DNA from: a virus
Taxonomy: Duplodnaviria; Heunggongvirae; Uroviricota; Caudoviricetes
Reading direction: 5' to 3' (one strand)
Virus record (IMG/VR): IMGVR_UViG_3300025121_000033
DNA length: 64,000 nucleotides
This document shows positions 9,861 to 56,318 of the stretch, one piece after another; position 1 is the first letter of the stretch, and every line of letters starts with the position of its first letter. The notes beneath the pieces are model-generated. The model did no database searches. It was not told the DNA's origin and was given only the letters and a program-made list of their open reading frames with translations. The position numbers and the translations under genes are program-made.

Positions 9861-10070
9861 AGAGCCGTGAAATAATCAGACACAGTTTGATTCTGTGACC
9901 TCACTCAAGATTGAATATTTACTAAGCGGATGGCAGAAAATAATTGCGGGATAACGCGAGTGGTGCTCGCGGACACCTTACCCAAACTGCAAGGTGAGTG
10001 TAAAATGGGTCTGAAGGGCCCGATGGATCTGACACAATTCCTTGCTCCGCTTACTAAGTATTTAATTATT

Positions 10071-10412: not shown

Positions 10413-10416
10413 TTAT

Positions 10417-10644: not shown

Positions 10645-10683
10645 TTGTTCCATCTCGTCATTAGGCGGGGGAAATAAAAGTAT

Positions 10684-11235: not shown

Positions 11236-11236
11236 T

Positions 11237-11635: not shown

Positions 11636-11737
11636 AGGCCAAAAAGAATACGGCAAAATTTTTGAAAAGCGAAAAAGATGTGGCCACAAATTTGCCTTTC
11701 AAAGTTGTGTGCGGTGTGATAAAAAATTAAATAAACT

Positions 11738-11995
11738 ATGAAACCTTCTCTCCAAAAACAAATAGACAATCTTAAAAAAGATATCAAAGCGATGAAAATT
11801 GAAATCGCTGTTCTACAAGCATTGGCCACTGGCGGTGCGAAGAGTAATGTTATTTATGCTTTACCAACTCCTTTTCATCCGACGGTAACCGGAAACCAAG
11901 GCGGTCAAGTAGCAGTTATAAGCACTCGCCCTCGTCGCCTTGACACGAGTATCTACGGCTCCGCAGGTGGAAACGGGGTAAACACTAAAGTATGA
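11738..11995 (+). CDS. Hypothetical protein (85 aa).
   Basis: ORF. Confidence 0.4.
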   Translation: MKPSLQKQIDNLKKDIKAMKIEIAVLQALATGGAKSNVIYALPTPFHPTVTGNQGGQVAVISTRPRRLDTSIYGSAGGNGVNTKV

Positions 11996-12201
11996 TATAC
12001 AAAATCATCTACAAATTATTAAAATTCTTTAAGATAATTTATGTCCCAGCGAGAACGATTCTCGAATTGGAACAGGATTTGAATTGTAATTGGCTTTTTA
12101 ATGACGGGGTGATAGACGCCAATGGCCACAGGATAACGGTTAAATTTACGCTGTTAAACAGTGGCACAATTTACCAAGACCAATATGGCTCTAAAGTATA
12201 A
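11992..12201 (+). CDS. Hypothetical protein (69 aa).
   Basis: ORF. Confidence 0.35.
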   Translation: MIYKIIYKLLKFFKIIYVPARTILELEQDLNCNWLFNDGVIDANGHRITVKFTLLNSGTIYQDQYGSKV

Positions 12202-16981: not shown

Positions 16982-17114
16982 ATATGTACGCTAAAATAAG
17001 AAATTGAGAGAGGATTTTTGGATAAATCCTTGAATAAATTAGTGGTGGGTTATTTTTGGGAGGATATCTGAGGAGATACGCCCTCGGACTCCTCTCTCAG
17101 TTTCTAATAAAATT

Positions 17115-18921: not shown

Positions 18922-20385
18922 ATGAAATTTCGATCGGGGAAATCAGTCGGTCAAAAAACTGTCAACTTAGCAGGCGGAGAAGCATTCAAGCAATCTCCTG
19001 AACTTGAATTGGTGTCTCTGCTTTTGACTTCGTTTGTAAAAGATAAATTTTACGAATCAGGCAATGACCAATTAGACAGATTGGCGTTGATCGTTAATAA
19101 ATTAGCTGATAAGAAATTCGCCGGTCAAGCCGCGATTTATGCGCGTAACGAATTTGGCATGCGCAGTATCACCCACGCTTTGATTGGCGAGATTGTCCAT
19201 ATTGTTAAAGGCCAAGAGTGGGTGAAGAACGCGGTAACGCGCACTGTGAAGCGCCCCGATGATATGCTTGAGATGTTGGGCTACTTTGGCTCAAAACATT
19301 CTGATAGTGCCATTCCGAATTCTTTAAAGAAAGGGCTGCGTTTGGCGGTAGGCAAATTCGATGCTTACCAGCTGACTAAATACAAAAGCTCCAGATCGGA
19401 TGTAAAAATGGTAGACTTGTTTAACCTCGTCCACCCTAAACCGGTGGATAGTAGGGCTGCTGATGTTTATTCCAAATTAATTAATGGCGAATTAAAAAAC
19501 ACTGAGACTTGGGAAGCTAAACTTTCCAGTGCCGGCCAAGAAGTAAAAGAAATGGCCGATGGTGCTGATAAGGAAGAGAAGCTGTCTGAGTTAAAAGAGA
19601 GTGCATGGCAAGAATTGTTAGAGAGTAAAAAGTTGGGCTACTTCGCTTTATTGCGCAACTTGCGCAATATCAGTCAGCAAGCGCCTAAACTTATTCCGCT
19701 TGCGATTGAGCAACTCCTTAACAAAGAAGCCATTCAGAAATCCCTGGTAATGCCTTTCCGCTTCCAAACGGCTTACAAAGAACTGGATGAGGCCGGTGTA
19801 AGTCGAAAGTTATTGGATGCGCTAAACGATGCGACCGAACTGTCACTCTCTAATGTGCCGAAATTCGCTGGTAAGACTTTGATAGTCCTCGACACCAGCG
19901 GTTCGATGCAGGGCGATCCGTTAGACATTGGTTCATTATTTGGCGCGGTGTTGTTTAAAGCAAACGCTGACGCAGATTTAATGACGTTTGATGACGACGC
20001 TCGGTATGAGAAAGGCATCAGCGGTAAAGATTCGCTCTTGACGATCGCTGAGAAGTTGCGCAAACACGACGGTGGCTCAACCAACTTCCACGATATATTC
20101 ATTAAGGCTAAAGAGAAGTATGATCGGATCGTGATTCTGTCTGATATGCAAGGGTGGAGCGGTGGCTACGACAACCCTACTGGAGATTTGCAAACTTATA
20201 ATAAAAAGTTTGGTGCCGATCCGTTCATTTATTCGTTTGATTTAGAAGGACACGGTACGCTCCAATTCCCTGAGAATAAGATTTTCTGTATTGCTGGTTG
20301 GTCTGATAAAATCTTAGGGGTAATGGCGCTTCTGGAAGAAGACAAAAACGCGTTAGTCAATAAAATAAAAGCAATAGTACTTTAA
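18922..20385 (+). CDS. rsr: Ro60 orthologue (Rsr): TROVE domain plus C-terminal vWA domain.
   Basis: ALLRNL, PFRFQTAYKEL, MIDAS motif LIVLDTSGSMQG, GGSTNF and IVILSDMQGWSGG align with human Ro60 ALLRNLGKM, HPFHILIALETY, LLAVDVSASMNQ, GGTDCS and IVFTDNETFAGG. Confidence 0.8.
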   Translation: MKFRSGKSVGQKTVNLAGGEAFKQSPELELVSLLLTSFVKDKFYESGNDQLDRLALIVNKLADKKFAGQAAIYARNEFGMRSITHALIGEIVHIVKGQEWVKNAVTRTVKRPDDMLEMLGYFGSKHSDSAIPNSLKKGLRLAVGKFDAYQLTKYKSSRSDVKMVDLFNLVHPKPVDSRAADVYSKLINGELKNTETWEAKLSSAGQEVKEMADGADKEEKLSELKESAWQELLESKKLGYFALLRNLRNISQQAPKLIPLAIEQLLNKEAIQKSLVMPFRFQTAYKELDEAGVSRKLLDALNDATELSLSNVPKFAGKTLIVLDTSGSMQGDPLDIGSLFGAVLFKANADADLMTFDDDARYEKGISGKDSLLTIAEKLRKHDGGSTNFHDIFIKAKEKYDRIVILSDMQGWSGGYDNPTGDLQTYNKKFGADPFIYSFDLEGHGTLQFPENKIFCIAGWSDKILGVMALLEEDKNALVNKIKAIVL

Positions 20386-20641: not shown

Positions 20642-20767
20642 CTGGGTAGCGATAGAAAAGTTACTTCGACTTATAATCGAGTGGTCGCTTGTTCGAGTCA
20701 AGCCGGCGCCTTCGGGAGCCGTAGCTCAGTTGGTAGAGCACTTTTACTTTTCTAGATTTTCTCCCAG
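20642..20767 (+). ncRNA. YrlA-like candidate Y RNA. A permuted tRNA-like module (T-arm 20687-20703; acceptor-like stem closed by a UUCG loop 20704-20721; D-arm 20722-20739) sits on a long stem (20642-61 / 20746-67).
   Basis: GGAGCCG-UA-GCUC-AGUUGGUA-GAGC is a canonical tRNA 5' half. GCTTG-TTCGAGT-CAAGC is a canonical T-arm and lies immediately upstream. There is no anticodon arm. The position is right next to rsr. Confidence 0.45.
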
Positions 20768-41023: not shown

Positions 41024-44000
41024 TTATACGACTAATTCGATTGCTTTGCCAGCGTTGCCAGCATTAGCAGCGCTACCGTTATTACCTGGTGAACCATTTG
41101 CAGATATTAAACCGATGCCCCCCGCACCACCAGTCCCAGTTGTGCCAGCGGCACCGCCTGAAGCGGTAATTGTGCCAGAGCCACTCTTTGTAGAATAAAC
41201 AACTATGGTAACACCGCCAGCGCCTCCGCCTCCAGCGCCCCCTCCGCCGCCACCACCGCCTCCATAACCTGAAGCGTGGCTGGGGTGCCCATCACCTCCA
41301 TCGCCGCCATCGCCGCCATTACCACCTGCGCCACCGTCTGCAGAAATAGCTCCGTTATTGACAATTGTTTTAGCGAATACTATGACAATACCACCTGTTG
41401 AGCCAGAACCACCACCACCGCCACCGCCACCGCCAAAACCTTCAACAGAAGACAATCTCCCAACACCTCCACCCGCACCGCCCCCACTTCCTGAACCAGC
41501 TGATGAACGAATAGAATCAGCAGATGGTAAATCATCCGCCATTCTCATCGCATGTTGCGAATTGCGCGGTGTGTTATAAACAGTGCCTGATTTAGCCCCT
41601 CCACCGCCGCCGCTTCCGCCAGATTGTGTCCCCGAACCTGGGTTACCTGATGCTCCACCTGTTCCGCCATTTGAACCATCAGCCCCGTTCGCAGCGAATC
41701 CTTTAACGCTGCCATCGCCTGCGGTCCCTGGGTCGCCTGGGTCACTACCTGTCCCTCTACCGTTTTTACCAGCTCCGCCGGTCTTACCATCTTCTCCGCC
41801 TGAAATTGATCCGCTTGTTTTTGCTGCCCCGCCTGAACCACCAGCGCCACCAGCGCCGTGGCTCGATCCTGTGTAATCATCACCATCGCCCCCGGCAGTG
41901 CCGGCAGTGCCCGCAAGCCCATCTCTGTGCACTTTATAAGTGCTATTAATTGTTAAAATACCCTTAACGAATAATCTGTATCCGCCACAATCTAAGCTAC
42001 CGCCTGATAAAGTTAAATCATCAAAGTAAGCATCTCGTGTTAAAATATTTGAAGTGATTGGGCCAGAAGAAAATGAACCTGAATTTATATCAACATCACC
42101 GTCTGAGCCATCACCGAATTGGTTTTGGTTGCTTAACGCAGATCCATTAATCGTCGCAGACTGAGCGACTAAATCGCCAGCGGCAGTCACATAAAACAAA
42201 GCTCCTGTTCCGGCATTATCGGTAGCACCCGCGAAGAACGATTTTGTTGTCCCAGTCCCTTGGATTGAGCCAGAAAAAGCAGAACCTGAACCACCGTACC
42301 ATTTACCAGAAGCAATCGTCCAGCCAGAACCAGCGCCGCCGATATAACCTGTGTCAGCTGTTACTGTGCCGGTGATGGTTGCGCTTGACGCAGTTAAAGC
42401 GCCAGCTTCAGTAACTCTAAATTCTGCACTGCCCGGCGTTGCATCTCCTGCCCAAAAACGAATATCGTCTCCGCCTGTGACTGCAGAAGAGAGGCCGACT
42501 ACTCCTGCCGCGTCCTTAATGGCATCCGAAGTGACCACCCAACCGCCGATTGCGCCAGAAGTAGCAGTTATCGCCCCTGTTATTGTAGCAGAAGTTGCTG
42601 TAAGTGCGCCAGACTCCGTGACTCTAAACTCAGCGCTTCCTGGCGTAGCGTCTCCTGCCCAGAAGCGAATATCATCGCCTCCGGTTACAGCTGAAGATAA
42701 TCCGACTACCCCGGCAGCGTCCTTAATTGCGTCTGAAGTAACAACCCATCCGCCGATTGCGCCAGATGTAGCAGTTATTGCTCCGGTGATGGTTGCGCTT
42801 GTAGCAGTCAATGCACCAGCTTCAGTGACTCTAAATTCAGCGCTTCCTGGCGTAGCATCTCCCGCCCAGAAGCGAATGTCATCGCCTCCAGTTACAGCGG
42901 ATGATAAACCGACTACTCCGGCAGCGTCAGTAATTGAAGTAGAATTTATTGTCCACCCTCCGATTGTCCCAGAGGTCGCTGTTATTGACCCTGTGATAGT
43001 CGCGCTTGTAGCGGTAAGGGCCCCCGCGTGAGATACTCTAAATTCGGCAGAACCTGGGGTATCGTTGCCTGCCCAAAAAGCGTAAGTAGCATCTCCGGTA
43101 GTAGTTGCTAACCCAATTCCAGTAGAAGTAATCTTGCCAGCTGCGATAACCCAGCCACTTGTGCCACCGATATAGCCAGTATTAGCAACAATTACGCCTT
43201 TTAAGTAGGCATTATCAGTATATAAACCCCAAACATCTGTCGAACTTAAACCAACGTCAGCGTCAACGATACCTTGTAGCCATCCGAATCTGCCGTGGAT
43301 TGTGTAATCACTATAAGTATTTGAGTTACGACCGTAAATATCAATATAAGGGCTGCTGGCAGAAGAGCTGTCAAGTAAGACAAAGCCTGTCTTCGTCCCA
43401 GTGCCCACGCCCATTGATACTACAGCAGTGCCTGTCGTCCAGACAGGGTTATTATCAGCAGTATACGAACCAGCCAAGTCGCGAGTTACGACATAAGTCG
43501 GAGCACCTGATGCGTCAGTTACTAGCATCCATTCGTCGTCTGTGCCGTCTTTTATTCTAATAACTTCATTGTTTACAAATGTTGTTTCGCCTGTTATGAC
43601 GACATTTGACGCGTCTAAAGCAGTCATATCAGAATCAAGCACATCAGCTTTTGAAACTAACACAATACCATTGACAGCAGAAATTGTGTCTTTTTCGAAA
43701 ACAGATGTTCTAATAGTGCCGCGCACAGTAACGTTTTGAAATTCGGCCTCGCCAGTACTCATTATGCGCCAGCCAGAACCCAATGGGCCAGAAACAAATG
43801 AACTAGAGCTAATAAAGTTAGACCCCAAAGTGTTTCCTCCGATTGTACCTGAAGTCGCCGAGATGACTCCAGCTTCTGTGACACGGAATGGAGCAGATCC
43901 TGGCGTTACGTGCCCAGCCCAGAATCTGATATCATCTCCACCAGTCACAGCCGAAGATAAACCAAAAGTAGCGGCAGTATCTGTTATGGTTGTCGCGTTA

Positions 44001-47000
44001 ATTGTAAATCCACCGATAGCGCCAGAAGTAGCAGTGATCGCGCCAGAGATAGAAACTCCTGTAGCGGATAAAGCCCCAGCATGGGTTACGCTAAATTCAG
44101 CAGATGCGGGTGTGTCATTGCCTGCCCAGAAAGCATAAGTGGCGTCTCCAGCGGAGGTCGCTACTCCGATCCCAGTGGAAGTAATTTTACCTGTAGCGAT
44201 TACCCAGCCAGTTACTCCACCAATATACCCTGTATTCGCTGTTATAACACCAGTGATTGTCGCTGACGAAGCAGTCAATGCACCAGCTTCAGTGACTCTA
44301 AATTCCGCGCTTCCTGGTGTAGCGTCTCCAGCCCAAAATCTAATATCATCGCCTCCAGTTACAGCTGAAGATAATCCGACTACTCCGGCAGCGTCTTGAA
44401 TATAATCAGCTCCAATTACCCACCCACCAATAGTACCGGTCGTGGCTGTGATACTGCCTGTGATTGTGGCTGAAGTCGCGACTAATGCGCCTGCTTCGGT
44501 AACACGGAAAGGCGCTGATGCTGGTGTAGCATTACCAGCAAAAAAGCGGATATCATCGCCTCCGGTTACAGTCGATAACATGCCGACTACCCCAGCCGCG
44601 TCTTTAATTGAATCAGCGCCGATAGCCCAGCCGCCAATAGTCGCAGTCCCAGCGCCGATACTGCCAGCTGTGATCGTGCCTAAATCAGCGGTGATGGCTG
44701 ATAGTTGAGAAACACTAAGTAACCCAGCTGTGATGGAATTTGCGACGATAGAATCAGTGCCAAGCAAAAATGTTCCTCCGATACCTCCGAATACTTGGAA
44801 AGTGGCAGCCGCTGCGCCATTAATTGCTGTCGCAACGATTATCTTACCAGTACCAACAGCGGTAGTCGCGGTCGTTGTTACTTGAAAAGCTATAGTAGAT
44901 ACTGCGATATCTAAGTAAATGTAAGTGCGTGCGACCATGTTGCCCGTGTTACCGGCTCCAATACTATAAGATGTGCCGCCAGTTACAGTCAAAGTACCTG
45001 CTCCCCAAGAAACAGTATCAGCATCAGTAGAAGAAAATGCGCAAGTTAAATTCCATCCTTGGTTGGCAATATTTAAGTTTGTTTGTGCGACAGTGCCGCT
45101 TAAGTAGTCTGTCGCTATAACTGAGCCGACTGCCGCAGTTAAAGCGCCGGTTATAGTTGCGGTTGAGGCGGTCAATGCGCCAGCTTCTGTTACTCTAAAT
45201 GGTGCTGACGCCGGTGTCGCGTTCCCCGCGAAAAAGCGTATGTCATCACCGCCAGTAACAGTCGAGAGCATGCCCACAACCCCGGCTGCGTCCTTAATAG
45301 CGTCTGATGTCACCACCCAACCTCCGATCGCTCCTGTGGTAGCCGTTATAGCGCCTGTGATAGTCGCGCTTGTGGCGACTAAAGCACCAGCTTCAGTAAC
45401 GCGGAAGGGGGCACTCCCAGGTGTAGCATTTCCAGCAAAAAATCTAATATCGTCACCGCCTGTTACTGTTGAGAGCATCCCTACTACGCCCGCCGCGTCT
45501 TTGATAGCGTCAGACGTCACGACCCAGCCACCAATAGCGCCAGAAGTAGCAGTGATAGCACCTGTAATAGTTGCTGAAGTCGCGACAATCGCGCCTGATT
45601 CATATACTCTGAACTCAGCGCTCGCAGGTGTTGCGTCACCCGCCCAAAAGCGAATATCGTCTCCACCTGTTACAACAGCTGAAAGTCCGACTGTTCCGGC
45701 TGCGTCTTTTAAATACCCGGCAGATATTACCCAACCTGAAGTACCGCCGATGTAACCAGTATTAGCGACGATTACACCCTTGATGTAAGCGTTATCAGTG
45801 TATAAGCCCCAGACATCAGTAGATGATAATCCAACGTCGCTATCAACAATACCTTGAAGCCAGCCAAAGCGTCCATGAATAGTATAATCAGAATAAGTAT
45901 TGGAATTTCTGCCATAGATATCGATATATGGCGAAGAAGCGCTTGAACTGTCAAGAAGGACAAACCCAGTTTTAGTCCCTGTGCCTACGCCCATAGATAC
46001 TACAGCCGTCCCTATCTTCCACACCGGGTTATTATTTGCTGTGTAAGTCGCTGCTAAATCGCGAGTCACGACATAAGTAGGCGCGCCAGAAGCATCAGTG
46101 ACCAACATCCATTCGTCATCAGTCCCGTCTTTAATGCGGATTACTTCATTATTAACAAAAGTAGTCTCACCTGTAATAGTAACTGTCGAAGCGTCAAGCG
46201 CCGTCATGTCAGCGTCAAGCACATCAGCTTTTGAAACCAAAACTATACCATTCACCGCTGAGATAGTATCTTTTTCAAAAACAGATGTTCTGATTACGCC
46301 GCGCACCGTTACATTCTGAAATTCAGCTTCACCCGTGCTCATTAATCTCCACCCCGTACCAAGTGGCCCGGACACGAACGAACTTGAACTGATAAAGTTA
46401 GTGCCAAGAGTGTTTCCACCAATTGTACCGCTTGTTGCTTTGATAACACCAGCTTCAGTGACATAGAACGGCGCAGAAGCAGGTGTCGCGTTGCCAGCCC
46501 AAAAGCGAATATCATCGCCCCCTGTTACAGCTGAAGATAATCCGACTACAGCAGCAGTGTCAGTAATACTAGTCGCGTTTATCGTCCAACCTCCGATTGT
46601 ACCGGACGTGGATGTGATAGACCCTGTAATTGTAGCTGAGCTGGCGACAAGAGCGCCTGATTCAGTAACATAGAACGGCGCTGATGCTGGTGTTGCGTGG
46701 CCGGCCCAGAAGCGAATGTCATCGCCTCCAGTTACAGCAGCGGATAAGCCAACCACACCTGCAGCGTCTTTAATATAATTCGTAGAAACTACCCATCCTG
46801 TTGCCCCTCCAAGGTATCCGGAATTCGCCGTAATCACACCAGTCACTGTCGCAGAAGTAAATGAAGCTGCGCCGGTGTTAAGAACATAAGCAGGAGCAGT
46901 CGCATATCCGGTTGCTTCATTTGTCCCCCACCACGTATTACCGGTAGTATCAACGTGCATTGAATTAGCGGTGGTTGTATCAGGTATGTCTAATTTACCG

Positions 47001-47809
47001 ACGGAGATAGCCGTTGCTGTAACACTGCCGTCTTCGTATACACGATAAGGAGCAGTGGCTCTATTAGCGAAGGTGGAACCAGCCCAAATTCTTACGTCAT
47101 TTCCACCTGTGACAGTAGAAGCAAAACCAAAACTATCAGCCGCGTCCCTGATATAATCTGAACCGATACTAAAGCCGCCGATAGCGCCAGTTGTAGCAGT
47201 GATCGAACCGGTGATATTTAATGCCGCGCCAGTCCAGTGGATAAAATCGCCAGCAGGGTCTCCGGCCCTAAATTCATAATCAGATCCGTCTTTGCCGATA
47301 AATATACCAACTCCAGTTAGAGGTGCAGTCGCCAAACCGAATAATATTTGCTCATTAGTAGAGTTGATGTGAACACTCCCACTGGATAATTCATTGGCAG
47401 ATATTGTCCATCCGCCGATAGCGCCAGCTGTGGCAGTAATAGTGCCTTCGATAGTAGCATTTTTAGCAAAGAAGTTTAAGCATTCAATATATCCACTTGG
47501 CCCGTCAATCCAAAAACCGCGCTCTTTAGGGGCGTAGTTAGTTGATTTAATCCACGTGTCTATCCAGACATCGGCCATTTGTGACCCTTCTACTGTGCCA
47601 GGTCTAACTTGAGCCGGTGAGGATACTTGTGTGCCGCCTGATGTCGCCGCCAAATCATCTGACTGCGCGACGTTTCCCATGTTGTAATTAGCTCCACTTA
47701 GTAAATTCTCACCGCTTTCAACCTTCACCATGTCTCCATCCGCTCTCCGCATCAAGTTATCGTATGGCAAGTCGATTGTCTGATAATCCATTTTATCGCC
47801 TTGCGCCAT
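41024..47809 (-). CDS. Giant (2261 aa) repetitive tail-fibre-like protein with many TGGDDIRFWAG...ATITG...IGGW repeats and a Gly-rich collagen-like C-terminus.
   Basis: Massive internal repeats at both protein and DNA level. The Gly-X-Y-like tail has the form GGAGGSGGAAKTSG.... Confidence 0.6.
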   Translation of the reverse strand: MAQGDKMDYQTIDLPYDNLMRRADGDMVKVESGENLLSGANYNMGNVAQSDDLAATSGGTQVSSPAQVRPGTVEGSQMADVWIDTWIKSTNYAPKERGFWIDGPSGYIECLNFFAKNATIEGTITATAGAIGGWTISANELSSGSVHINSTNEQILFGLATAPLTGVGIFIGKDGSDYEFRAGDPAGDFIHWTGAALNITGSITATTGAIGGFSIGSDYIRDAADSFGFASTVTGGNDVRIWAGSTFANRATAPYRVYEDGSVTATAISVGKLDIPDTTTANSMHVDTTGNTWWGTNEATGYATAPAYVLNTGAASFTSATVTGVITANSGYLGGATGWVVSTNYIKDAAGVVGLSAAVTGGDDIRFWAGHATPASAPFYVTESGALVASSATITGSITSTSGTIGGWTINATSITDTAAVVGLSSAVTGGDDIRFWAGNATPASAPFYVTEAGVIKATSGTIGGNTLGTNFISSSSFVSGPLGTGWRLMSTGEAEFQNVTVRGVIRTSVFEKDTISAVNGIVLVSKADVLDADMTALDASTVTITGETTFVNNEVIRIKDGTDDEWMLVTDASGAPTYVVTRDLAATYTANNNPVWKIGTAVVSMGVGTGTKTGFVLLDSSSASSPYIDIYGRNSNTYSDYTIHGRFGWLQGIVDSDVGLSSTDVWGLYTDNAYIKGVIVANTGYIGGTSGWVISAGYLKDAAGTVGLSAVVTGGDDIRFWAGDATPASAEFRVYESGAIVATSATITGAITATSGAIGGWVVTSDAIKDAAGVVGMLSTVTGGDDIRFFAGNATPGSAPFRVTEAGALVATSATITGAITATTGAIGGWVVTSDAIKDAAGVVGMLSTVTGGDDIRFFAGNATPASAPFRVTEAGALTASTATITGALTAAVGSVIATDYLSGTVAQTNLNIANQGWNLTCAFSSTDADTVSWGAGTLTVTGGTSYSIGAGNTGNMVARTYIYLDIAVSTIAFQVTTTATTAVGTGKIIVATAINGAAAATFQVFGGIGGTFLLGTDSIVANSITAGLLSVSQLSAITADLGTITAGSIGAGTATIGGWAIGADSIKDAAGVVGMLSTVTGGDDIRFFAGNATPASAPFRVTEAGALVATSATITGSITATTGTIGGWVIGADYIQDAAGVVGLSSAVTGGDDIRFWAGDATPGSAEFRVTEAGALTASSATITGVITANTGYIGGVTGWVIATGKITSTGIGVATSAGDATYAFWAGNDTPASAEFSVTHAGALSATGVSISGAITATSGAIGGFTINATTITDTAATFGLSSAVTGGDDIRFWAGHVTPGSAPFRVTEAGVISATSGTIGGNTLGSNFISSSSFVSGPLGSGWRIMSTGEAEFQNVTVRGTIRTSVFEKDTISAVNGIVLVSKADVLDSDMTALDASNVVITGETTFVNNEVIRIKDGTDDEWMLVTDASGAPTYVVTRDLAGSYTADNNPVWTTGTAVVSMGVGTGTKTGFVLLDSSSASSPYIDIYGRNSNTYSDYTIHGRFGWLQGIVDADVGLSSTDVWGLYTDNAYLKGVIVANTGYIGGTSGWVIAAGKITSTGIGLATTTGDATYAFWAGNDTPGSAEFRVSHAGALTATSATITGSITATSGTIGGWTINSTSITDAAGVVGLSSAVTGGDDIRFWAGDATPGSAEFRVTEAGALTATSATITGAITATSGAIGGWVVTSDAIKDAAGVVGLSSAVTGGDDIRFWAGDATPGSAEFRVTESGALTATSATITGAITATSGAIGGWVVTSDAIKDAAGVVGLSSAVTGGDDIRFWAGDATPGSAEFRVTEAGALTASSATITGTVTADTGYIGGAGSGWTIASGKWYGGSGSAFSGSIQGTGTTKSFFAGATDNAGTGALFYVTAAGDLVAQSATINGSALSNQNQFGDGSDGDVDINSGSFSSGPITSNILTRDAYFDDLTLSGGSLDCGGYRLFVKGILTINSTYKVHRDGLAGTAGTAGGDGDDYTGSSHGAGGAGGSGGAAKTSGSISGGEDGKTGGAGKNGRGTGSDPGDPGTAGDGSVKGFAANGADGSNGGTGGASGNPGSGTQSGGSGGGGGAKSGTVYNTPRNSQHAMRMADDLPSADSIRSSAGSGSGGGAGGGVGRLSSVEGFGGGGGGGGGSGSTGGIVIVFAKTIVNNGAISADGGAGGNGGDGGDGGDGHPSHASGYGGGGGGGGGAGGGGAGGVTIVVYSTKSGSGTITASGGAAGTTGTGGAGGIGLISANGSPGNNGSAANAGNAGKAIELVV
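42350..46800. repeat. Coding tandem/dispersed repeats of about 195 nt, plus a duplicated block of about 0.6 kb (43200-43800 vs 45780-46380), inside the giant fibre gene.
   Basis: Near-identical nucleotide stretches are visible by eye. The antisense ORFs in the track are artefacts of these repeats. Confidence 0.7.
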
Positions 47810-51131: not shown

Positions 51132-51428
51132 TTATTTTTTTGATATTTTTACATTCTTAGCAGCGTTAGCCACTTTGCGCGTTATGACCGCTAATTTTTC
51201 AGTGATAATTGGCAATAAATACTGGGCACCTTCGAATGCCGCTTTGAGCACTAACCTGCCGACTAAAACAACCGCACCTATCCATCCTGACGCTTCAAGA
51301 TTTTCATAAGTAAAAGTCTGAACAGCCATGGTAAATGATACCATGAACCCAGTTAAAAATGTTAAGAAAGAGCTCCACGCATAACGTTTCCAATTCTTTT
51401 TTAATACTGAGAGTGTGAAATTTGCCAT
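51132..51428 (-). CDS. Holin-like two-transmembrane protein (98 aa).
   Basis: Two hydrophobic helices and a charged C-terminus. It lies immediately downstream of the endolysin. Confidence 0.45.
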   Translation of the reverse strand: MANFTLSVLKKNWKRYAWSSFLTFLTGFMVSFTMAVQTFTYENLEASGWIGAVVLVGRLVLKAAFEGAQYLLPIITEKLAVITRKVANAAKNVKISKK

Positions 51429-51434
51429 ATTTTT

Positions 51435-52532
51435 TTATTTAGAAAATAAAGAATTTAACTTAAACCGAGTCGCGGGACCAACTTTTTTACCGTTAACAAT
51501 GTTTAGCTCCCACCAAGACGCAACTTTATACTTGACTTGGAATGCCTTAACCGCCTTTTGCGTAATCACACCATAGTAACCGGTCTCTTTCTGGCGCACT
51601 GGGAACACTCCGTCAATTTTAAGAGCAGTTTGTAATTTCTTTACGTCATCATTATTTTGGCCGAACTTCAAATCGTAATAAAAGTGATGTTTAAATTCCT
51701 GCTCGCTCGGCAAATTATGAACTTCATCCAACAGCTCGTTTGGCAAGTCAATCGCAGTAATCGCTTCGTCGATGAATGGTTTGTATTGTTCATAAAAGAA
51801 AAACCCAGTTCCATTATCAGCCCAATCTTTAGACCACGAATTTAAGAAATAAAATTTTGTAAAACCGCCTTCTTCGCTTGTACGATATCCGTAAAGCCAA
51901 ATCTCATGACCGCTCACAATTTGCGCCGGTGGTCTAATTGGTAAAATATCAGATGCTTTCCATGAATTTTTACCGTTCTTATCAGTCCACCACTCTCTAC
52001 CTACGCGTACAAGAAGCATACAACCCTGTCCGGCGATAATAGCCTGTTTGAGTTCATCACAGCTTAATCCAGCAGTAGCGTAACTCTTAATTTTGTACTT
52101 CGCCGCTTCTTTTATCGCAGCGCTTGGTATGTTTTCAAGTTTACGATTAAAAACGTATTCTTCGTGGGAAAGATCGCAATTATTTGGCACAGTCTTTTCT
52201 GTCGCACAGCCATAATCTTTCGCCGCCTTCATTAAAATCCGCGGATATGTGCCTTCGCCCGGATAATTATCAAAGCATTTTGCTAACGCGTAAAGAAAGC
52301 GCGGGCTTAAATTTAAAATACTTTTTGTTTCAGTCTCTTCCTGTTTTTGGCGATATTTTGCACCCGCGTGACCGACACAAGAGCCAATCGATTTTTGATT
52401 CCAGATCGGTAAATTTTTTATATCGACAAAATATTCCTTCGGTAAATTCTGCGGCGCGCCTAAAACAGCCGTTAATTTGATATCGCGGTAATCTTTAGGA
52501 CTAGGGATACCACCAAAAGAAATTGGTTGCAT
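51435..52532 (-). CDS. Endolysin: papain-like (C1-type) cysteine peptidase domain plus a C-terminal peptidoglycan-binding domain.
   Basis: NQKSIGSCVGHA carries the catalytic Cys (QxxxGSCW-like). SGHEIWLYGY carries the His. NSWSKDWADNG carries the Asn. The C-terminus KKLQTALKIDGVF...GYYGVITQKAVKAFQ is PG_binding_1-like. Confidence 0.55.
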   Translation of the reverse strand: MQPISFGGIPSPKDYRDIKLTAVLGAPQNLPKEYFVDIKNLPIWNQKSIGSCVGHAGAKYRQKQEETETKSILNLSPRFLYALAKCFDNYPGEGTYPRILMKAAKDYGCATEKTVPNNCDLSHEEYVFNRKLENIPSAAIKEAAKYKIKSYATAGLSCDELKQAIIAGQGCMLLVRVGREWWTDKNGKNSWKASDILPIRPPAQIVSGHEIWLYGYRTSEEGGFTKFYFLNSWSKDWADNGTGFFFYEQYKPFIDEAITAIDLPNELLDEVHNLPSEQEFKHHFYYDLKFGQNNDDVKKLQTALKIDGVFPVRQKETGYYGVITQKAVKAFQVKYKVASWWELNIVNGKKVGPATRFKLNSLFSK

Positions 52533-52539
52533 ATAAAAT

Positions 52540-52584
52540 TATTAAAATTGGGTTGGGGTCTTTTGTTATTCCGGTAGACCCCAA
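52540..52584 (-). terminator. Intrinsic terminator of the moron on the - strand: stem ttggggtc / gaccccaa, then a U-rich tail.
   Basis: Perfect 8-bp inverted repeat followed on the - strand by CCCAAUUUUAAUAAUUUU. Confidence 0.5.
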
Positions 52585-52601
52585 ACCGGAAATCGGAGGG
52601 G

Positions 52602-52772
52602 CTACTGAACGGTGGGGTGGGGTTCGTGCGTGGGGTGGGGCGGGTAGGGCGCGCGGTAGTCCTCGGCTTCCATTCCGCAGTTGTCGCAGATGTAGAAGTG
52701 GCGGGCATAGTGTTTCCACTTTCCCCGCGAGCCGAGGTAGCGCATTTTCGCGTCGCATTTCACGCAATTCAT
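52602..52772 (-). CDS. 56-aa zinc-ribbon protein (MNCVKCDAKMRYLGSRGKWKHYARHFYICDNCGMEAEDYRAPYPPHPTHEPHPTVQ) in the GC-rich moron.
   Basis: Own translation in a different frame from track ORF 52501..52872. It is preceded by AAAGGGTGAAAG and has two CxxC pairs. Confidence 0.4.
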   Translation of the reverse strand: MNCVKCDAKMRYLGSRGKWKHYARHFYICDNCGMEAEDYRAPYPPHPTHEPHPTVQ

Positions 52773-52973
52773 CTTTCACCCTTTCTGTTCGTGGGCGTAG
52801 TTGTCGCGGTTCAAGTATTCCCACTCCTTGATACCGAGAGAAACGACGCGCTGTTGTCCACACTTCAAGCACTCAATGGTCGCCTGCGCCTTGTAATCGC
52901 CCAAGAGGGCTTTCACGAAGCGATGTTCGCGCCAGTTGAGGCACTTGGAGCAAACGAACTTCCTGCCTTTCAT
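52773..52973 (-). CDS. 66-aa zinc-ribbon protein (MKGRKFVCSKC...CLKCGQQ) in the GC-rich moron, carrying a strong Shine-Dalgarno sequence.
   Basis: AAGGAGG lies 6 nt upstream of the ATG. The stop overlaps the next start (TGAaagATG). GC content is far above that of the flanking sequence. Confidence 0.45.
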
Positions 52974-53162
52974 GCTCTGCCTCCTTATGCTAATCAGCAC
53001 ACCGCCAATCCCGTTGAGCCACACTCCTGATGTAGCCCAACAGCTTAGCGGAAACTGTTCATATCAATCTTACGATTGACGATGTGCCGATTAGTAATTT
53101 TAAAGAACTGTTGACAACTTTTTTAGAAATATCGTTTTTAGAAGTTGTCTACCGGTTGTAAA

Positions 53163-53531
53163 CTATTTATTTTTCACAGTATCATAAACTATTTTTAAAG
53201 TGGTATCCAATGCGGTTATTCGGTTACTCATCTCGCCCATCATCGCAGACAGATTGTCAATTTTAGTATCCAGTGTATGTATGTGATTCTGTGCCAAAGC
53301 GGTGGCTTCGGATTGTGATTTGCTTAATTCAAGGAACCGTCTTTCGTTTGACTCTTTTTCCCATTGAACTTGTCTGGCTAAAACATCAGCAGTATTCTGA
53401 GCCTCCTTTTCTGCCAAAGCTTGCCGCTTGTCAATTTCTTCTTGTGGCTTGTGGAAGTAAAAAAATATCGAAAATATTACACCGAGCAATCCGATTACGA
53501 ACATTATATTTGATGGCGTTAGCAAGTCCAT
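53163..53531 (-). CDS. Membrane-anchored coiled-coil protein (122 aa; N-terminal transmembrane segment). Could be spanin- or holin-like.
   Basis: Hydrophobic N-terminus followed by a long charged helix. Confidence 0.4.
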   Translation of the reverse strand: MDLLTPSNIMFVIGLLGVIFSIFFYFHKPQEEIDKRQALAEKEAQNTADVLARQVQWEKESNERRFLELSKSQSEATALAQNHIHTLDTKIDNLSAMMGEMSNRITALDTTLKIVYDTVKNK

Positions 53532-53536
53532 ACTAA

Positions 53537-53953
53537 TTAAGCATCTAATAAGTAACCAAACAATTCAAAGGCGCCAGTCTCAGAATCAGCCGTAGCACCA
53601 ACCTGCACCTTTATACCAAGCACGTCAGCAGCCGCAAAGTATTGAGTGTTGGCGTTTGTAGATGTTAATATCATCATTTCTGGTGATGTGTCTACAGTCG
53701 TTAGGGCCGTTGTCCCTTTCCATTCTGTGTACCCAGCTGATTTGCCAACTGAAACCTGGGCTACAACCGTCGGGTTGGTCGATGCTGTTATGCGGACTAT
53801 GGCGTGGGTGATAATAGCAATCTTACCTGTTGGTACGGTGAATAAATTGGTTCCGGCGATTGTTTTCATATCCACACCTGTCGCCGATCCTAATAGATTT
53901 ATAACTGAGGGGACGGTGCTGTTATCGGTGTATGTTACATTTCCTTTGGACAT
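53537..53953 (-). CDS. Hypothetical structural protein (138 aa).
   Basis: ORF. Confidence 0.45.
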   Translation of the reverse strand: MSKGNVTYTDNSTVPSVINLLGSATGVDMKTIAGTNLFTVPTGKIAIITHAIVRITASTNPTVVAQVSVGKSAGYTEWKGTTALTTVDTSPEMMILTSTNANTQYFAAADVLGIKVQVGATADSETGAFELFGYLLDA

Positions 53954-53975
53954 ATAATAATTTTAAAATTTATTG

Positions 53976-56318
53976 CTATATAGCGGTTCTTGCTAATTCT
54001 CTCCAAGCCTGCCCACCAGCAGTAGTAGTAGTAAGAGCCAGTGTCAGGGTATCGTTAGCTGTCATTGAAAAATTAGACGCTCCCGCTAAAAGCACCGTGA
54101 TATCACTACCACTCGTGGCAGTACCGTGATTTATGGTTACACTTTCATTAGCAATCAAAGTAATCTCATGCCCATCTTGATAACCAGTTTTAGTAATCAG
54201 GTTGACCGCAGTTGTACCGGTTAACTCAAACTTATTTCCATCAGTTGGGATAACAATCGTACTTGCCGAAGCAATATCAGTCCCTTGGTTGCCGATAATA
54301 GCTCCATCAAAACGTGAGGCGCCAGCATCTACAAAGATTGAGTATGGACCATTAGCAGGAGTGGTTCCTGCGACCGGTGCAGCCTCGATGTAAAGCGCGG
54401 CAAGGTTCGTTACCACTTCTGAACCTGCTCCATCAGTGATGGTTAATGTATCAATCGAAAGTCCCGCAATTGTGCTATGGGTCCCACTCGATGCTTCTGT
54501 GATTCCACCACCGAGATTCAAATGAGCGATCGCGTTTCCTGCTGCCCCTGTGAACGCGCGGTTAATCTGCAGTGTAAAGTCTGTATCCGGTGTAGTCACC
54601 CCACCACCGATAACCCCGACACCTCTTAAGACATAATTTCCAGCTAAATCAAGAACGCCTGCAGGAGTTAGCGTCATCTTTGTAGTGAGCGACGCTCCGC
54701 CGCCCGCCATGGTCTGCCATACAAATTCTGTACCAACATCCCCAGTTGTCGGGGTAGGATCGTCCACTTGCGCATAAAAACGTGCCGAAAGTGTCGCAAG
54801 GTTCGTGCCGTCAGCGGCATAAAATCCAAGAACACCAAGCTTGTCATTATCTTGCACGACAGTGCTACTGCCTATAGTCGCATTGCGTGATTTTATAAAT
54901 TGAAGTTCAGACGCAAAAGCATCAGCACTAAAGCGACCAAACAAACCAGATGAATCAGGCCCAGCAGTACCAAGCACCTGAAATTCAGGAGCCATGTCTG
55001 TTGTAATTTGTGCCGTATGCCCAATCACTACACCTGTCCCATTCGCGAACAGGGTGTCAGTGTTTGGGGTAAGAGTAATCGAACCTGCGGGAGCAGATAT
55101 ATTTTGCGTGATGACAGTGCCATCAAAACGAGAATCGCCAGAGCCGACCCAAAGAGCGTAATTATTTGTAAGCGTCACCGAGGCCCCTGCTGTCATCGCG
55201 CCTTCAATAAATACAGTAGCGGCATCCGTAACAACCACAGCACCACCCGATTGATTGATTGTTTTACCCATCAAAACCGCCGTTCCGATAAGGCCTGTGG
55301 TGATATTGGTGGTCTTTCCGAGCGTTACGACATTCCCACCTGCCAATAAATCACCGATAGTAGCATCAGCCGAAGACTGATAAATAGTATTATCTTCTGT
55401 TCCCAAAGTGAGTGAAACCAAAGTACCAAACTCAACCAAATTGCTTGCGGCGGTCGGTGCATTTATGCTTGCACCCGAAGCATTGGTAATCGTGCGGACA
55501 AGGGTTGTGGAGGTAAGTGAATGGTTGTCGATAACCAAGGAAACAAAATTATCAAGCGTAGCCGTCTGATTGCCAAGATTCAAATTTCCATTTGTCCCAT
55601 CACCACTGATAAGCAAACCAAATCTGTATGTAGCCGCACCGATTCCGTTCGCAATGCCGGGCATAAAAATCTGTTGCTGTTGTGCGGTGAGGTGGCTGGA
55701 CTCATTGGAATCCTGTGTACTGCCGAGTGTTAAAGCAGCGTGACCCGTACCGTTTGCGCTACGCACCGCAATAAATTGCCCTGCAGATGTCTGTAAAGTC
55801 CCAACTCCGTTGGTAATCGAAACATCACTTAAATTGACATAAGCTCCAAAAAATCCAGAGGCTCCTGAGGAAGGTCCAGTAAGAGTAAAGGTTCCGTCAA
55901 GAGACAAAAATGCCGATTGGGAATTGCCTGTCGCCGTATAGTCGTTAGAATGGTCAACCATCAATATAGCCTCATTAGGTTGTATCGTGGAGATAGACGT
56001 AAGAAACAAATTTCCCTGAGTCGTAACCCTGAAAACCTCCGTCGTTCCAAGCGTTCCACCATACGCACTAATAAAATCTGTATTATTCCATCCTGTAACA
56101 TTGGTTTCCGTAACAACCATCTTAATACCACGGAAATAATCTGAACCACCTGCAGCACCTGCGTCATTGAGAGTTGCGGCAAGGCTAAGAATTTTATCAT
56201 TTGTACCGCCAGAGGTAAATGTTGACGATAAAACAAGAGTATCATTCGCGATTCTCTGAGTAATGTTTGTCCCAGACCTCTTAAAAGGAGGCCACATTGT
56301 TACGACAGGAAGTCCCAT
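53976..56318 (-). CDS. 780-aa beta-helix/fibre-like structural protein.
   Basis: Gly/Thr/Ala/Ser-rich repetitive sequence. Confidence 0.5.
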   Translation of the reverse strand: MGLPVVTMWPPFKRSGTNITQRIANDTLVLSSTFTSGGTNDKILSLAATLNDAGAAGGSDYFRGIKMVVTETNVTGWNNTDFISAYGGTLGTTEVFRVTTQGNLFLTSISTIQPNEAILMVDHSNDYTATGNSQSAFLSLDGTFTLTGPSSGASGFFGAYVNLSDVSITNGVGTLQTSAGQFIAVRSANGTGHAALTLGSTQDSNESSHLTAQQQQIFMPGIANGIGAATYRFGLLISGDGTNGNLNLGNQTATLDNFVSLVIDNHSLTSTTLVRTITNASGASINAPTAASNLVEFGTLVSLTLGTEDNTIYQSSADATIGDLLAGGNVVTLGKTTNITTGLIGTAVLMGKTINQSGGAVVVTDAATVFIEGAMTAGASVTLTNNYALWVGSGDSRFDGTVITQNISAPAGSITLTPNTDTLFANGTGVVIGHTAQITTDMAPEFQVLGTAGPDSSGLFGRFSADAFASELQFIKSRNATIGSSTVVQDNDKLGVLGFYAADGTNLATLSARFYAQVDDPTPTTGDVGTEFVWQTMAGGGASLTTKMTLTPAGVLDLAGNYVLRGVGVIGGGVTTPDTDFTLQINRAFTGAAGNAIAHLNLGGGITEASSGTHSTIAGLSIDTLTITDGAGSEVVTNLAALYIEAAPVAGTTPANGPYSIFVDAGASRFDGAIIGNQGTDIASASTIVIPTDGNKFELTGTTAVNLITKTGYQDGHEITLIANESVTINHGTATSGSDITVLLAGASNFSMTANDTLTLALTTTTAGGQAWRELARTAI

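Follow-up and report, generated by a model that had tools for sequence, protein, structure and literature searches.

A mobile cassette of Shine-Dalgarno-led zinc-ribbon genes immediately upstream of the endolysin gene in phages otherwise lacking Shine-Dalgarno sites

Two small zinc-ribbon genes, ZnR1 and ZnR2, each led by a Shine-Dalgarno (SD) site, form a horizontally mobile accessory cassette that is exchanged among SD-less phages, and every cassette found adjoins a C1-peptidase endolysin gene, immediately upstream. The cassette was analysed in a 64,000-nt stretch of phage DNA, here called the window (Table 1), and at related loci. The best explanation of the evidence as a whole, though one advanced tentatively, is that of a mobile cassette that would bring endolysin synthesis under post-transcriptional control through an RNA pseudoknot predicted to lie ahead of the endolysin start codon.

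Table 1. Features of the cassette and its flanking genes, with positions in the window
Feature	Position	Strand	Description
Endolysin	51435..52532	-	365 aa; papain-like C1 peptidase (PF00112) and PG_binding_1 (PF01471); 180 homologues
Accessory cassette	52533-53162		630 nt; directly upstream of the endolysin gene
Predicted H-type pseudoknot	52554..52591	-	Begins 10 nt past the ZnR2 stop and ends 21 nt short of the endolysin ATG
ZnR2	52602..52772	-	56-aa Cys4 zinc ribbon with Pro/His-rich tail; C3, C6, C29, C32
G4 motif GGGGTGGGGCGGGTAGGG	52632..52649	+	Template strand of ZnR2
ZnR2 SD-like GGGUGA	52776..52781	-	3 nt, then AUG; -8.5 kcal/mol
ZnR1	52776..52973	-	65-aa Cys4 zinc ribbon, CxxC-x23-CxxC; C8, C11, C35, C38
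ZnR1 SD AAGGAGG	52980..52986	-	6 nt ahead of ATG; anti-SD duplex -12.2 kcal/mol, strongest in the window
Three-way-junction leader RNA (predicted)	52990..53094	-	105 nt; 21-bp outer stem around two hairpins
UUCUUU anti-SD-like motif	53102..53107	-	Predicted partner of the ZnR1 ribosome-binding region
Hairpin 1 (inverted repeat)	53110..53152	-	Arms 53110-53120 and 53142-53152: GACAACTT/AAGTTGTC
Upstream neighbour gene	53163..53531	-	122 aa; N-terminal transmembrane helix and coiled coil; from the ORF list

A jump in GC content at this site, remarked on in the preliminary description of this DNA, is borne out by computation: positions 52585-52990 contain 57.1% GC versus 43.3% for the whole window, with a z of 3.15 in 400-nt windows (the third-ranking block within the 64 kb). 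Both ZnR genes are foreign at synonymous sites, with GC3 values of 0.74 for ZnR1 and 0.81 for ZnR2 against 0.415±0.055 for resident genes (z 5.9 and 7.1). Relatives that lack the cassette confirm an insert, as the genes that flank it lie only 1-3 nt apart in them: the spacer is 3 nt in L079, the nearest relative by endolysin (69% identity), and 1 nt in L010-L013, versus 630 nt in the window, and at 52 loci besides L079 the cassette is absent and the upstream gene abuts the endolysin gene. Because the block is foreign by GC3 and missing from the closest relatives, it can be regarded as a moron-like accessory insert, and it is not an assembly artefact, as a pair of independent assemblies agree over the block at 100% identity and a further one at 99.2%.

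The insert is not confined to the window, since SD-led zinc-ribbon pairs occupy the equivalent site in three other SD-less phage lineages (L007, L009 and L083). Comparison of L083 with L007 and L009 gives ZnR2 identities of 57-62%, whereas identity falls to 26-27% in the endolysin next to it and none of the remaining neighbours shows similarity; this similarity of ZnR2 in an otherwise unrelated phage indicates that the cassette moves between phages. L084, L085, L087 and L088 were rejected as carriers, their match being a spurious QLECPDC inside a 340-aa structural protein. That the gene pair is instead an ancestral part of the lysis module, inherited vertically with many losses and never inserted, is quite improbable. 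Such a history is in keeping with the syntenic position in the window, L007, L009 and L083, with the weak relationship among ZnR1 families, and with the ZnR1-ZnR2 junction and UUCUUU motif common to the lineages, but not with a GC3 that exceeds that of the resident genome in every lineage (L007, L009 and L083 included), with the lack of the cassette in L079 and the 52 other loci, or with a ZnR2 whose conservation between L083 and L007/L009 exceeds that of the adjacent endolysin by more than a factor of two, a relation that is reversed between L007 and L009.

It is also unlikely that the cassette is selfish mobile DNA that targets the endolysin-upstream junction and spreads, by a homing-type or recombination-driven process, between co-infecting phages with little benefit to them. 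Several observations would suit such an element, including intergenic insertion at a single precise junction, a patchy spread over a star-like endolysin tree, transfer into the unrelated phage L083, the structured cassette ends, and HNH genes inserted nearby in L079. Both proteins, at 56-65 aa, nonetheless lack a nuclease, recombinase or HNH/GIY motif (no HNH, GIY-YIG or LAGLIDADG domain was found in either with Pfam, NCBIfam or PHROGs), neither a target-site duplication nor terminal repeats are evident, and ZnR2 is under purifying selection. T4-type phages are known to carry mobile regulatory cassettes with stem-loops at their flanks; these PeSL units combine an early promoter with a stem-loop, and they too consist of small novel ORFs with structured regulatory brackets that are shuffled between related phages at intergenic junctions (PMC2839356). 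The present cassette differs in being bracketed by a three-way junction on one side and a pseudoknot on the other, and in being tied to a single gene.

ZnR1 and ZnR2 are real, translationally coupled Cys4 zinc-ribbon genes. The preliminary description had correctly recognized two minus-strand Cys4 ORFs and the length of ZnR2, but ZnR1 is 65 rather than 66 aa long. Paired CxxC knuckles are present in seven intact ORFs from four lineages, with SD sites at the correct spacing, and the differences between the L007 and L009 ZnR2 genes (15, 11 and 30 at the three codon positions) are enriched at third positions, which implies coding status and purifying selection. Together with the identical sequence in independent assemblies, these features make it scarcely credible that the block is free of genes, its ORFs having arisen by chance in a structured, GC-rich element of RNA or DNA or in a chimeric assembly, even though GC-rich DNA yields long ORFs in several frames (a 137-aa antisense ORF is also present in the block), three short contigs break within ZnR2, and gene callers passed over the region in L001 and L003.

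Window ZnR1 aligns with L007/L009 ZnR1 with an hhalign probability of 58% (E 1e-4), and all four Cys of ZnR1 are invariant. ZnR1 evolves very fast: in L007 and L009 it is 37% identical where the endolysin is 81% identical, and in L083 it is degenerate or frameshifted, leaving a fragment without the first CxxC knuckle. The Cys4 pattern of ZnR2 recurs in every lineage, although the columns of a three-way alignment hold only three of the four window Cys, and homology between the window ZnR2 and those of L007, L009 and L083 is not detectable. Searches with the two peptides revealed no homologues outside related cassettes. Exact-protein look-ups had neither on record; word-index homology searches returned only ZnR1 itself from 5.8e9 proteins and no homologue of ZnR2; and an HMMER scan of 1.84e9 representatives with ZnR1 found itself and one multi-ribbon protein of 1127 aa (E 4e-5). 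There was no match to three ZnR proteins among cultured phages by tblastn or to a ZnR1 profile in IMG/VR, and Pfam, PHROGs, NCBIfam and PDB sequence searches gave only sub-threshold, generic zinc-knuckle matches. Even a conservative reading defines a new zinc-ribbon gene pair without detectable homologues that is not in Pfam, PHROGs or NCBIfam.

An AF2 model of ZnR1 (pLDDT 70) consists of a three-stranded ribbon and a C-terminal helix, for which the top Foldseek matches, albeit weak ones (E 0.12 in PDB and 0.015 in BFVD, TM-score ~0.5), are NrdR-type nucleic-acid-binding zinc ribbons; the ZnR2 model, with a pLDDT of 59, was too poor for structure search. Identification of ZnR2 as an Ogr/Delta late-gene activator was rejected, since its score against Ogr_Delta (PF04606; 18.4 bits, E 0.0021) falls below the Pfam gathering cut-off of 26.3 bits; the L007 and L009 ZnR proteins did not match this family.

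The contrast between the translation starts of the cassette and those of the resident genes, which had been noted at the outset, is fully upheld: of about 70 genes, a canonical SD leads ZnR1 and ZnR2 alone. The ZnR1 start consists of UAAGGAGG, 6 nt and the AUG, whereas the other 69 ORFs have a mean anti-SD energy of -1.5 kcal/mol, none of the 69 has a canonical AGGAGG at SD distance, and in 94% of the other genes the leader is A/U-rich and position -1 is a T. The SD-like GGGUGA of ZnR2 overlaps the TGA stop codon of ZnR1, with the AUG 3 nt further on, implying translational coupling, and the junction has the same layout in L009 (GGAGGTGAAAAATG). Across the four lineages, seven ZnR starts (six of intact ORFs, plus that of the L083 ZnR1 fragment) have anti-SD energies between -8.5 and -17.6 kcal/mol although their surroundings lack SD sites, with T at -1 in none of the seven and the SD correctly spaced ahead of every start, that of the L083 fragment included. 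Retention of the SD through deep divergence (ZnR1 is 24-37% identical) argues for selection, and not for a legacy of the donor alone. The proposal of a horizontally acquired block holds insofar as the cassette is accessory, moron-like, foreign in GC3 and missing from the closest relatives, but the SD sites are probably more than a leftover of an SD-using background.

Upstream of ZnR1, the preliminary description had pointed to an inverted repeat. Its arms exist and enclose a loop of ~21 nt that holds two direct repeats (TTCTAAAAA), but hairpin 1 is not conserved, the arms being weakened without compensation in a 99%-identical variant (L002) and the hairpin being absent from L007, L009 and L083. 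That earlier reading had overlooked a much larger element, a predicted three-way-junction leader that precedes ZnR1, ends 4 nt before the ZnR1 SD and has a minimum free energy of -54.7 kcal/mol (z -8.6; none of 200 shuffles was equally stable). The same three-way architecture is predicted at positions 858-948 of L007 (z -8.4), with a different outer-stem sequence, and the two leaders have the motif TCAATC-N-AAGATTGATA in common; the element is absent from L009 and L083. The UUCUUU motif is found in L007 and L009 directly after the stop codon of the upstream gene, in a context (TAGTTCTTT) conserved in both, with AGTTCTTT as its counterpart in the window, and the ZnR1 SD is predicted to be paired with a probability of 0.88 in L007, 0.70 in L009, 0.69 in L083 (where the motif reads CUCUUU) and 0.48 in the window. 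The three-way junction is an optional part of the cassette that, from its predicted fold, clamps the ZnR1 ribosome-binding site. Neither the leader nor the pseudoknot matched an Rfam family in a search of window positions 52400-53300 at E<=10, and the L007/L009 cassette gave no match at the same threshold; the former would be a new three-way-junction element, and the latter a new conserved motif, without an Rfam entry.

The hairpin at the opposite end of the cassette (52540-52584), previously taken for an intrinsic terminator, is not one. A terminator scan makes no call there, the loop is 16 nt long, the fold z-score is only -1.8, and a U-tract is missing from this element in L007 and L009. 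Moreover, since the endolysin ATG is just 9-34 nt away, efficient termination here would shut off a gene that the phage needs, with no room for a new promoter. The hairpin is better described as stem 2 of a predicted H-type pseudoknot, which in the window comprises stem 1 (UUCCGGU/ACCGGAA), loop 1 (U), stem 2 (UGGGGUCU/AGACCCCA) and loop 3 (UAACAAA), 15 bp in total. The same topology is predicted in L007 and L009 (CGGG-UUA-GCUCU-CCCG-ACAAA-AGAGC) and in L083 (CGGU-UUA-GGUGGUUU-C-ACCG-CUAA-AAACCACC), and between L007 and L009 all 29 nt of the pseudoknot block are identical, although ZnR2 directly upstream differs at ~30% of positions.

The RNA structures were assessed by per-sequence folds and, for pseudoknots, by a purpose-made finder with shuffles and controls. 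The pseudoknot is predicted in four of four cassettes, with differing, covarying stem sequences from three or four independent lineages, too few for a statistical test of covariation, and no pseudoknot of any kind was found in 300 shuffles of the window sequence or of any of the four spacers. Controls yielded one pseudoknot in 53 cassette-less endolysin upstream regions and four of at least 12 bp in 128 kb scanned; a search of IMG/VR with a 25-nt block of the L007/L009 pseudoknot found no match. The distance from the ZnR2 stop to the pseudoknot is 10, 0, 5 and 5 nt, and that from the pseudoknot to the endolysin ATG 21, 16, 34 and 9 nt. Several identities were rejected: a preQ1-I or other pseudoknot riboswitch, because Rfam gives no match and a loop 2 of 0-1 nt cannot form a preQ1-I-type ligand pocket; any known riboswitch or ribozyme, the hammerhead included, for which Rfam offers no support; and pseudoknot-driven readthrough or frameshifting, because the spacing varies from 0 to 10 nt and a ribosome reading through would meet a stop after 11 codons.

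How might such an element act on the endolysin gene? In relatives without the cassette, an endolysin start 1-3 nt from the upstream stop would couple the two genes directly, and the cassette would exchange this coupling for a pseudoknot within or beside the landing zone of the 30S subunit. The pseudoknot, which begins 0-10 nt beyond the ZnR2 stop, would be melted by ribosomes that terminate there, and the zinc-ribbon proteins might bind it as well; by either route SD-dependent translation of the cassette would come to govern the output of endolysin, and hence the timing of lysis. Lysis timing is normally credited to holins and antiholins, and not to RNA structure and small zinc proteins. If the link holds, the cassette would be a portable, self-contained module that rewires the translation start of a phage endolysin. 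Counting against such gating, relatives without the cassette evidently lyse, which makes the cassette dispensable; the window ZnR2 shows no detectable homology to the others; the L009 pseudoknot, separated from the ATG by 34 nt, would barely fall within a 30S footprint; and the endolysin start region, which is SD-less and A/U-rich with T at -1, is itself unpaired in the predicted fold.

A rival possibility, somewhat less likely, is that the cassette is a generic moron whose zinc-ribbon proteins act on the host or its defences, as takeover or anti-defence factors, that the endolysin site is a permissive hot spot at the end of a late operon, and that the pseudoknot is an RNA-stability or insulation element. 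The patchy distribution and foreign GC3, the lack of detectable homologues and a recombination breakpoint at population level that coincides exactly with the cassette's left border are consistent with this possibility, and the fast evolution of ZnR1 and its decay in L083 would be less expected of a core regulator than of a protein in an arms race or under low constraint. What a generic moron leaves unexplained is the position directly upstream of a C1-peptidase endolysin in four of four occurrences, one of them in an unrelated genome, as well as the strong constraint on a pseudoknot in the endolysin 5' UTR (29 of 29 nt), and Pfam, PHROG and NCBIfam give no match above threshold. The fixed site ahead of the endolysin points to a link with lysis at least as strongly as to an anti-defence role.

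Phage morons are accessory transcription units of the HK97/lambda type, as defined by Hendrix and Juhala. Like them, the cassette lies between genes that are adjacent in relatives, is atypical in composition, dispensable, without detectable homologues and patchily distributed; unlike them, it has no identifiable promoter, its 3' element is a pseudoknot in the 5' UTR of the next gene in place of a terminator, it recurs at one junction, upstream of the endolysin, in unrelated phages, and it is SD-led among SD-less resident genes. A scan of the minus strand of 52974-53162 for the sigma-70 consensus found no promoter, and the host may have a different promoter type; the Bacteroidota -7 motif TAnnTTTG, which may not be that of the host, is not enriched in the window (61 matches versus 62 expected).

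Two known systems resemble the proposed gating of endolysin synthesis. In com-mom of phage Mu, Com, a small zinc protein with a Cys4 motif, remodels an mRNA structure and so activates translation of the gene that follows. As there, the gene for a zinc protein of ~60 aa immediately precedes, and is co-transcribed with, a late gene that could be lethal, with a conserved RNA structure between the two; the differences are that two proteins are present here, not one, that the Com family is absent from the Pfam matches of any ZnR protein at E<=1, and that the endolysin start codon is not predicted to be sequestered. The leader of T4 gene 32 contains an autoregulatory pseudoknot followed by an unstructured A/U-rich stretch up to the AUG, and this pseudoknot nucleates binding of a zinc-containing nucleic-acid-binding protein. 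The H-type pseudoknot of the cassette is likewise followed by 9-34 nt of A/U-rich single-stranded leader, with a zinc protein encoded in cis, but the regulated gene is not the zinc-protein gene and the ZnR proteins are unrelated to gp32.

A precedent for the SD sites exists in Flavobacteriales, where rpsU, encoding bS21, is an SD-led exception among the SD-blind Bacteroidia, in which only bS21-deficient ribosomes read such an SD (PMC9976891, PMC13000453, PMC7797042). The cassette likewise has strong, conserved SDs on few genes in a genome that is otherwise SD-less; for this phage, SD-blind host ribosomes are a supposition. No bS21 gene was found among the 65 phage ORFs scanned against Pfam, which comprised all but the four largest. 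Taken further, the comparison suggests a lysis clock, a long shot, by which the phage would time lysis by the state of the host ribosome pool. If host ribosomes ignore SDs, the structure-clamped, SD-led ORFs would be read only by an SD-competent subpopulation, for example ribosomes without bS21, whose numbers could rise as infection proceeds to its late phase, and the ribosomes that complete ZnR2 would melt the pseudoknot and so license endolysin translation. The conserved SDs on seven starts in four lineages would then be the functional core of the cassette and not a donor leftover. If the link between cassette and lysis holds, these would be natural SD-dependent genes under selection inside SD-less genomes, and through them one could approach the specialised translation of SD-blind bacteria and of the phages that infect them.

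The source phage is uncultured, about 90 kb in size, with an SU10-like capsid and genes without SD sites; the cassette lies in its lysis region. Its capsid protein is only 21-31% identical to those of cultured relatives, whose hosts are many and varied, and scans of 185,579 genomes with the endolysin and RecA yielded nothing useful for host assignment. A DNA search with positions 51400-54000 against 50,697 phage records found no match, and single-protein searches of IMG/VR with the endolysin and a 138-aa neighbour as queries found no locus.

The G-quadruplex potential that had been ascribed to the reverse strand of ZnR2 reflects a real motif, GGGGTGGGGCGGGTAGGG, the sole G3+N1-7 x4 match on either strand of the 64 kb; it is lineage-specific, being absent from the L007, L009 and L083 cassettes, and is explained as the antisense of the CCC, CAC and ACC codons of the Pro/His-rich tail. 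Upstream of the cassette, the 122-aa neighbour appears holin- or spanin-like from its sequence features, with weak matches to holins only (PHROG 1350, E 0.0012; TIGR01673, E 0.027). In L002, L007, L009 and L079 its slot is taken by a different protein of 80-89 aa, with a coiled coil and a C-terminal transmembrane helix.

The GC-rich block on the minus strand between a transmembrane/coiled-coil gene and the C1-peptidase endolysin gene is a mobile accessory cassette, carrying real zinc-ribbon genes (ZnR1 and ZnR2) led by Shine-Dalgarno (SD) sites and a conserved predicted pseudoknot in the endolysin 5' UTR. The surrounding genome is that of a phage with SU10-type capsid and adaptor, DnaB-primase, RecA and SbcCD-like genes, in which early genes occupy the plus strand and large structural genes the minus strand. 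GC climbs from ~0.40 to 0.58 around the cassette, and the computed profile has a local peak there, as the preliminary description proposed, with 57.1% GC for 52585-52990 compared with 43.3% for the whole window (z=3.15, 400-nt blocks; third in rank, both higher blocks lying within a 2261-aa ORF). Synonymous-site composition of the ZnR genes is far beyond the phage's own range, with GC3 of 0.74 for ZnR1 and 0.81 for ZnR2 as against 0.415±0.055 (maximum 0.52) for the 69 resident genes. The block is no artefact, because the same sequence was recovered in independent assemblies (100% identical in two, 99.2% in a third). Three short, independently assembled contigs from this phage (L004, L005 and L006) break within ZnR2 (at 52738, 52705 and 52617), one of them at the G-run cluster, which suggests a coverage drop at this GC/G4-rich stretch or population heterogeneity there. 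The two top-GC blocks (41100-41930, minus strand, 59% GC, strong negative GC skew) sit in the C-terminal end of the giant structural protein encoded by the 2261-aa ORF (41024-47809), and may represent a second segment gained by horizontal transfer, or else a domain of low complexity.

Features of the cassette and the region before the endolysin gene
Feature	Coordinates	Strand	Description
Three-way junction leader	52990-53094	-	105 nt, upstream of ZnR1 SD
ZnR1	52776-52973	-	65 aa; two CxxC knuckles
ZnR2	52602-52772	-	56 aa; two CxxC knuckles
H-type pseudoknot (predicted)	52554-52591	-	UUCCGGU-U-UGGGGUCU-ACCGGAA-UAACAAA-AGACCCCA

Both tandem Cys4 ORFs described earlier are present, the second with the length first given and the first with 65 rather than 66 residues; the knuckles in each are 22-23 residues apart. 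Ahead of ZnR1 stands UAAGGAGG, 6 nt from the AUG, and its predicted pairing with the anti-SD (-12.2 kcal/mol) is the strongest among ~70 ORFs; ahead of ZnR2 stands GGGUGA, 3 nt from the AUG (-8.5 kcal/mol), the TGA of this motif being the ZnR1 stop codon. The remaining ORFs average ~ -1.5 kcal/mol and all lack a canonical AGGAGG at SD distance, bearing out the idea of an SD-led pair in an SD-less setting. Resident leaders are A/U-rich, with T at -1 in 94% and A at -5 in 74% of the 69 ORF starts and G and C almost absent from -16 to -2; the resident start signal is thus a very strict SD-less WWT-ATG. Every ZnR ORF, in all lineages, breaks this rule, none having T at -1.

Genomic contexts were recovered for homologues of the endolysin (180 found). 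In the closest relative, L079 (69% endolysin identity), only 3 nt separate the end of the upstream coiled-coil/TM gene from the endolysin ATG; the L010-L013 clade (61%) has a 1-nt spacer, and in ~50 further loci no Cys4 ORF lies upstream of the endolysin. This absence, together with the foreign GC3, agrees with the proposal of a moron-like, horizontally acquired block. The insert is not unique, however: loci L007 and L009, with endolysins 65-66% identical to the window's, have two tandem Cys4 ORFs in the identical slot, all with strong SDs (-9.5 to -17.6 kcal/mol) among neighbours without SD, and with raised GC3 (0.45-0.50 vs 0.25 in L007; 0.50-0.52 vs 0.39 in L009). A fourth cassette occurs in L083, an IMG/VR record of a phage that is otherwise unrelated. 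The ZnR2 encoded there shares 57-62% identity with those of L007 and L009, whereas the adjoining C1-peptidase endolysin is just 26-27% identical and no other neighbouring gene matches; on this sequence comparison, the cassette is horizontally exchanged, and is found repeatedly directly upstream of a C1-peptidase endolysin. The endolysin tree (window, L079, (L007, L009), L010) is star-like, at 61-69% identity, and patchy cassette presence therefore needs several gains or several losses. L079 also carries HNH endonuclease genes (1405-2082, 3819-4511). In L009 a glycosyltransferase/methyltransferase gene cluster (6516-12065) directly follows the endolysin, one gene of which (8563) has an SD-like AAAGGAG (-8.7 kcal/mol). 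The 99%-identical variant L002 matches the window at 99.2% over the stretch that runs from the cassette's left border through the endolysin; upstream (1-820) its tail-fibre tip (175 aa) and small TM protein (80 aa, C-terminal TM helix) are not those of the window, making the population a mosaic with a recombination breakpoint at the upstream gene's stop codon (window ~53172).

Judged from their divergence, the ZnR ORFs are real genes. ZnR2 of L007 and L009 differs by codon position 15/11/30 (19 codon changes synonymous, 20 non-synonymous); ZnR1 is 37% and the adjoining endolysin 81% identical between these loci. By hhalign, ZnR1 of the window has a weak relation to theirs (probability 58%, E 1e-4), and none was detected for its ZnR2. 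Neither protein could be placed in a known family: searches of Pfam, PHROGs, NCBIfam and PDB sequences gave only sub-threshold zinc-knuckle matches (best Ogr_Delta, 18.4 bits; cut-off 26.3), and ZnR1, scanned against 1.84 billion representative proteins, returned itself and, at E 4e-5, one multi-ribbon protein of 1127 aa. AF2 models ZnR1 (pLDDT 70) as a three-stranded ribbon with a helix, whose closest folds are NrdR-type N-terminal zinc ribbons (weak, E 0.015-0.12), a lead towards possible nucleic-acid binding. In L083, ZnR1 (3825-4003) has lost its first knuckle, and the ORF is split where the frame shifts at a run of GGAAAAAG; gene decay, an error in sequencing and programmed frameshifting are all candidate explanations. 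Both ZnR2 and the pseudoknot of L083 are intact. The main rival to a regulatory role is that the cassette is a plain moron for anti-defence or host takeover, sitting in a hot spot that tolerates insertions. It is favoured by how fast ZnR1 evolves and by the decay of this gene in L083, and is somewhat less likely than a regulatory role.

The hairpin at 52540-52584, once read as the pair's own intrinsic terminator, is stem 2 of a predicted H-type pseudoknot. A terminator is not supported: a terminator scan made no call, hairpin stability is not unusual, and a promoter would not fit in the short stretch before the endolysin, so an efficient terminator would silence that gene. Equal topology occurs 3' of ZnR2 in all four cassettes, with stems that differ in sequence and a loop 3 rich in A (CGGG-UUA-GCUCU-CCCG-ACAAA-AGAGC in L007 and L009; CGGU-UUA-GGUGGUUU-C-ACCG-CUAA-AAACCACC in L083), 0-10 nt from the ZnR2 stop and 9-34 nt from the endolysin ATG. 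In L007 and L009 it lies inside a 29-nt block identical between both, while ZnR2 just upstream differs at ~30% of positions. Under the same rules no pseudoknot arose in 300 shuffles of each of the four spacers, and one was found in 1 of 53 cassette-less upstream regions; the whole window, both strands included, holds four of at least 12 bp. Rfam had no matching family.

Tentatively, the cassette gates endolysin translation. In relatives without it the endolysin would be in tight coupling with the gene before it; insertion would sever this coupling and set a stable pseudoknot inside or next to the site where the 30S subunit lands at the SD-less, A/U-rich endolysin start region, to be unwound by ribosomes terminating at ZnR2. 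The zinc-ribbon proteins may also bind the pseudoknot, with Mu Com and the T4 gene 32 leader as models by analogy. Bacteroidia ribosomes are SD-blind unless they lack bS21 (PMC7797042, PMC9976891, PMC13000453); that the conserved SDs tie lysis to ribosome-pool state, should host ribosomes behave likewise, is a long shot. A Pfam search of the 65 window ORFs other than the four largest (780-2261 aa) turned up no bS21 gene. The cassette belongs to a known class, accessory cassettes; new in it are SD use in SD-less genomes, the pseudoknot that is conserved among cassettes and the strict tie to the endolysin.

The leader before ZnR1 is predicted to be very stable (MFE -54.7 kcal/mol, z-score -8.6). 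That of L007 has a like architecture (z -8.4) with a different outer stem, a TCAATC...AAGATTGATA hairpin being common to both; the three-way junction is absent from L009 and L083. A conserved UUCUUU (CUCUUU in L083), directly 3' of the upstream stop codon in L007 and L009, is predicted to base-pair with the SD of ZnR1 (pairing probability of the SD 0.48 to 0.88). The small inverted repeat reported upstream is present, but is weakened without compensation in L002 and absent elsewhere. Likewise the reported G4 motif exists (52632, plus strand) and is the sole one in 64 kb, but it is the antisense of CCC/CAC/ACC codons in the Pro/His-rich ZnR2 tail and is missing from other cassettes; this lends no support to a G4 reading.

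Three more structured intergenic elements of 110-130 nt lie on the plus strand at 780-917, 9350-9480 and 16985-17114 (z-scores -7.0, -4.5 and -4.1), each with a long outer stem around one or two hairpins, one ending in a U-run; their architecture resembles the ZnR1 leader, their sequences are unrelated, and they could serve to punctuate operons or as sites of processing. At 18922-20385 the phage has a gene for a Ro60/TROVE protein with a vWA domain (plus strand; TROVE match E 1.6e-17). Since bacterial Ro60 proteins act together with Y RNAs, its partner RNA could be one of these elements; Rfam found no Y RNA in the window. ARAGORN calls a tRNA-Ile (anticodon TAT) at 20644-20713 (plus strand), and the Rfam gathering scan of the window gave no tRNA. 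Small early plus-strand ORFs match peptide deformylase, M23 peptidase, YopX, AP2 and a ROS/MucR zinc-finger regulator, and a Band-7/SPFH protein is encoded in the same early region at 5916-6755.
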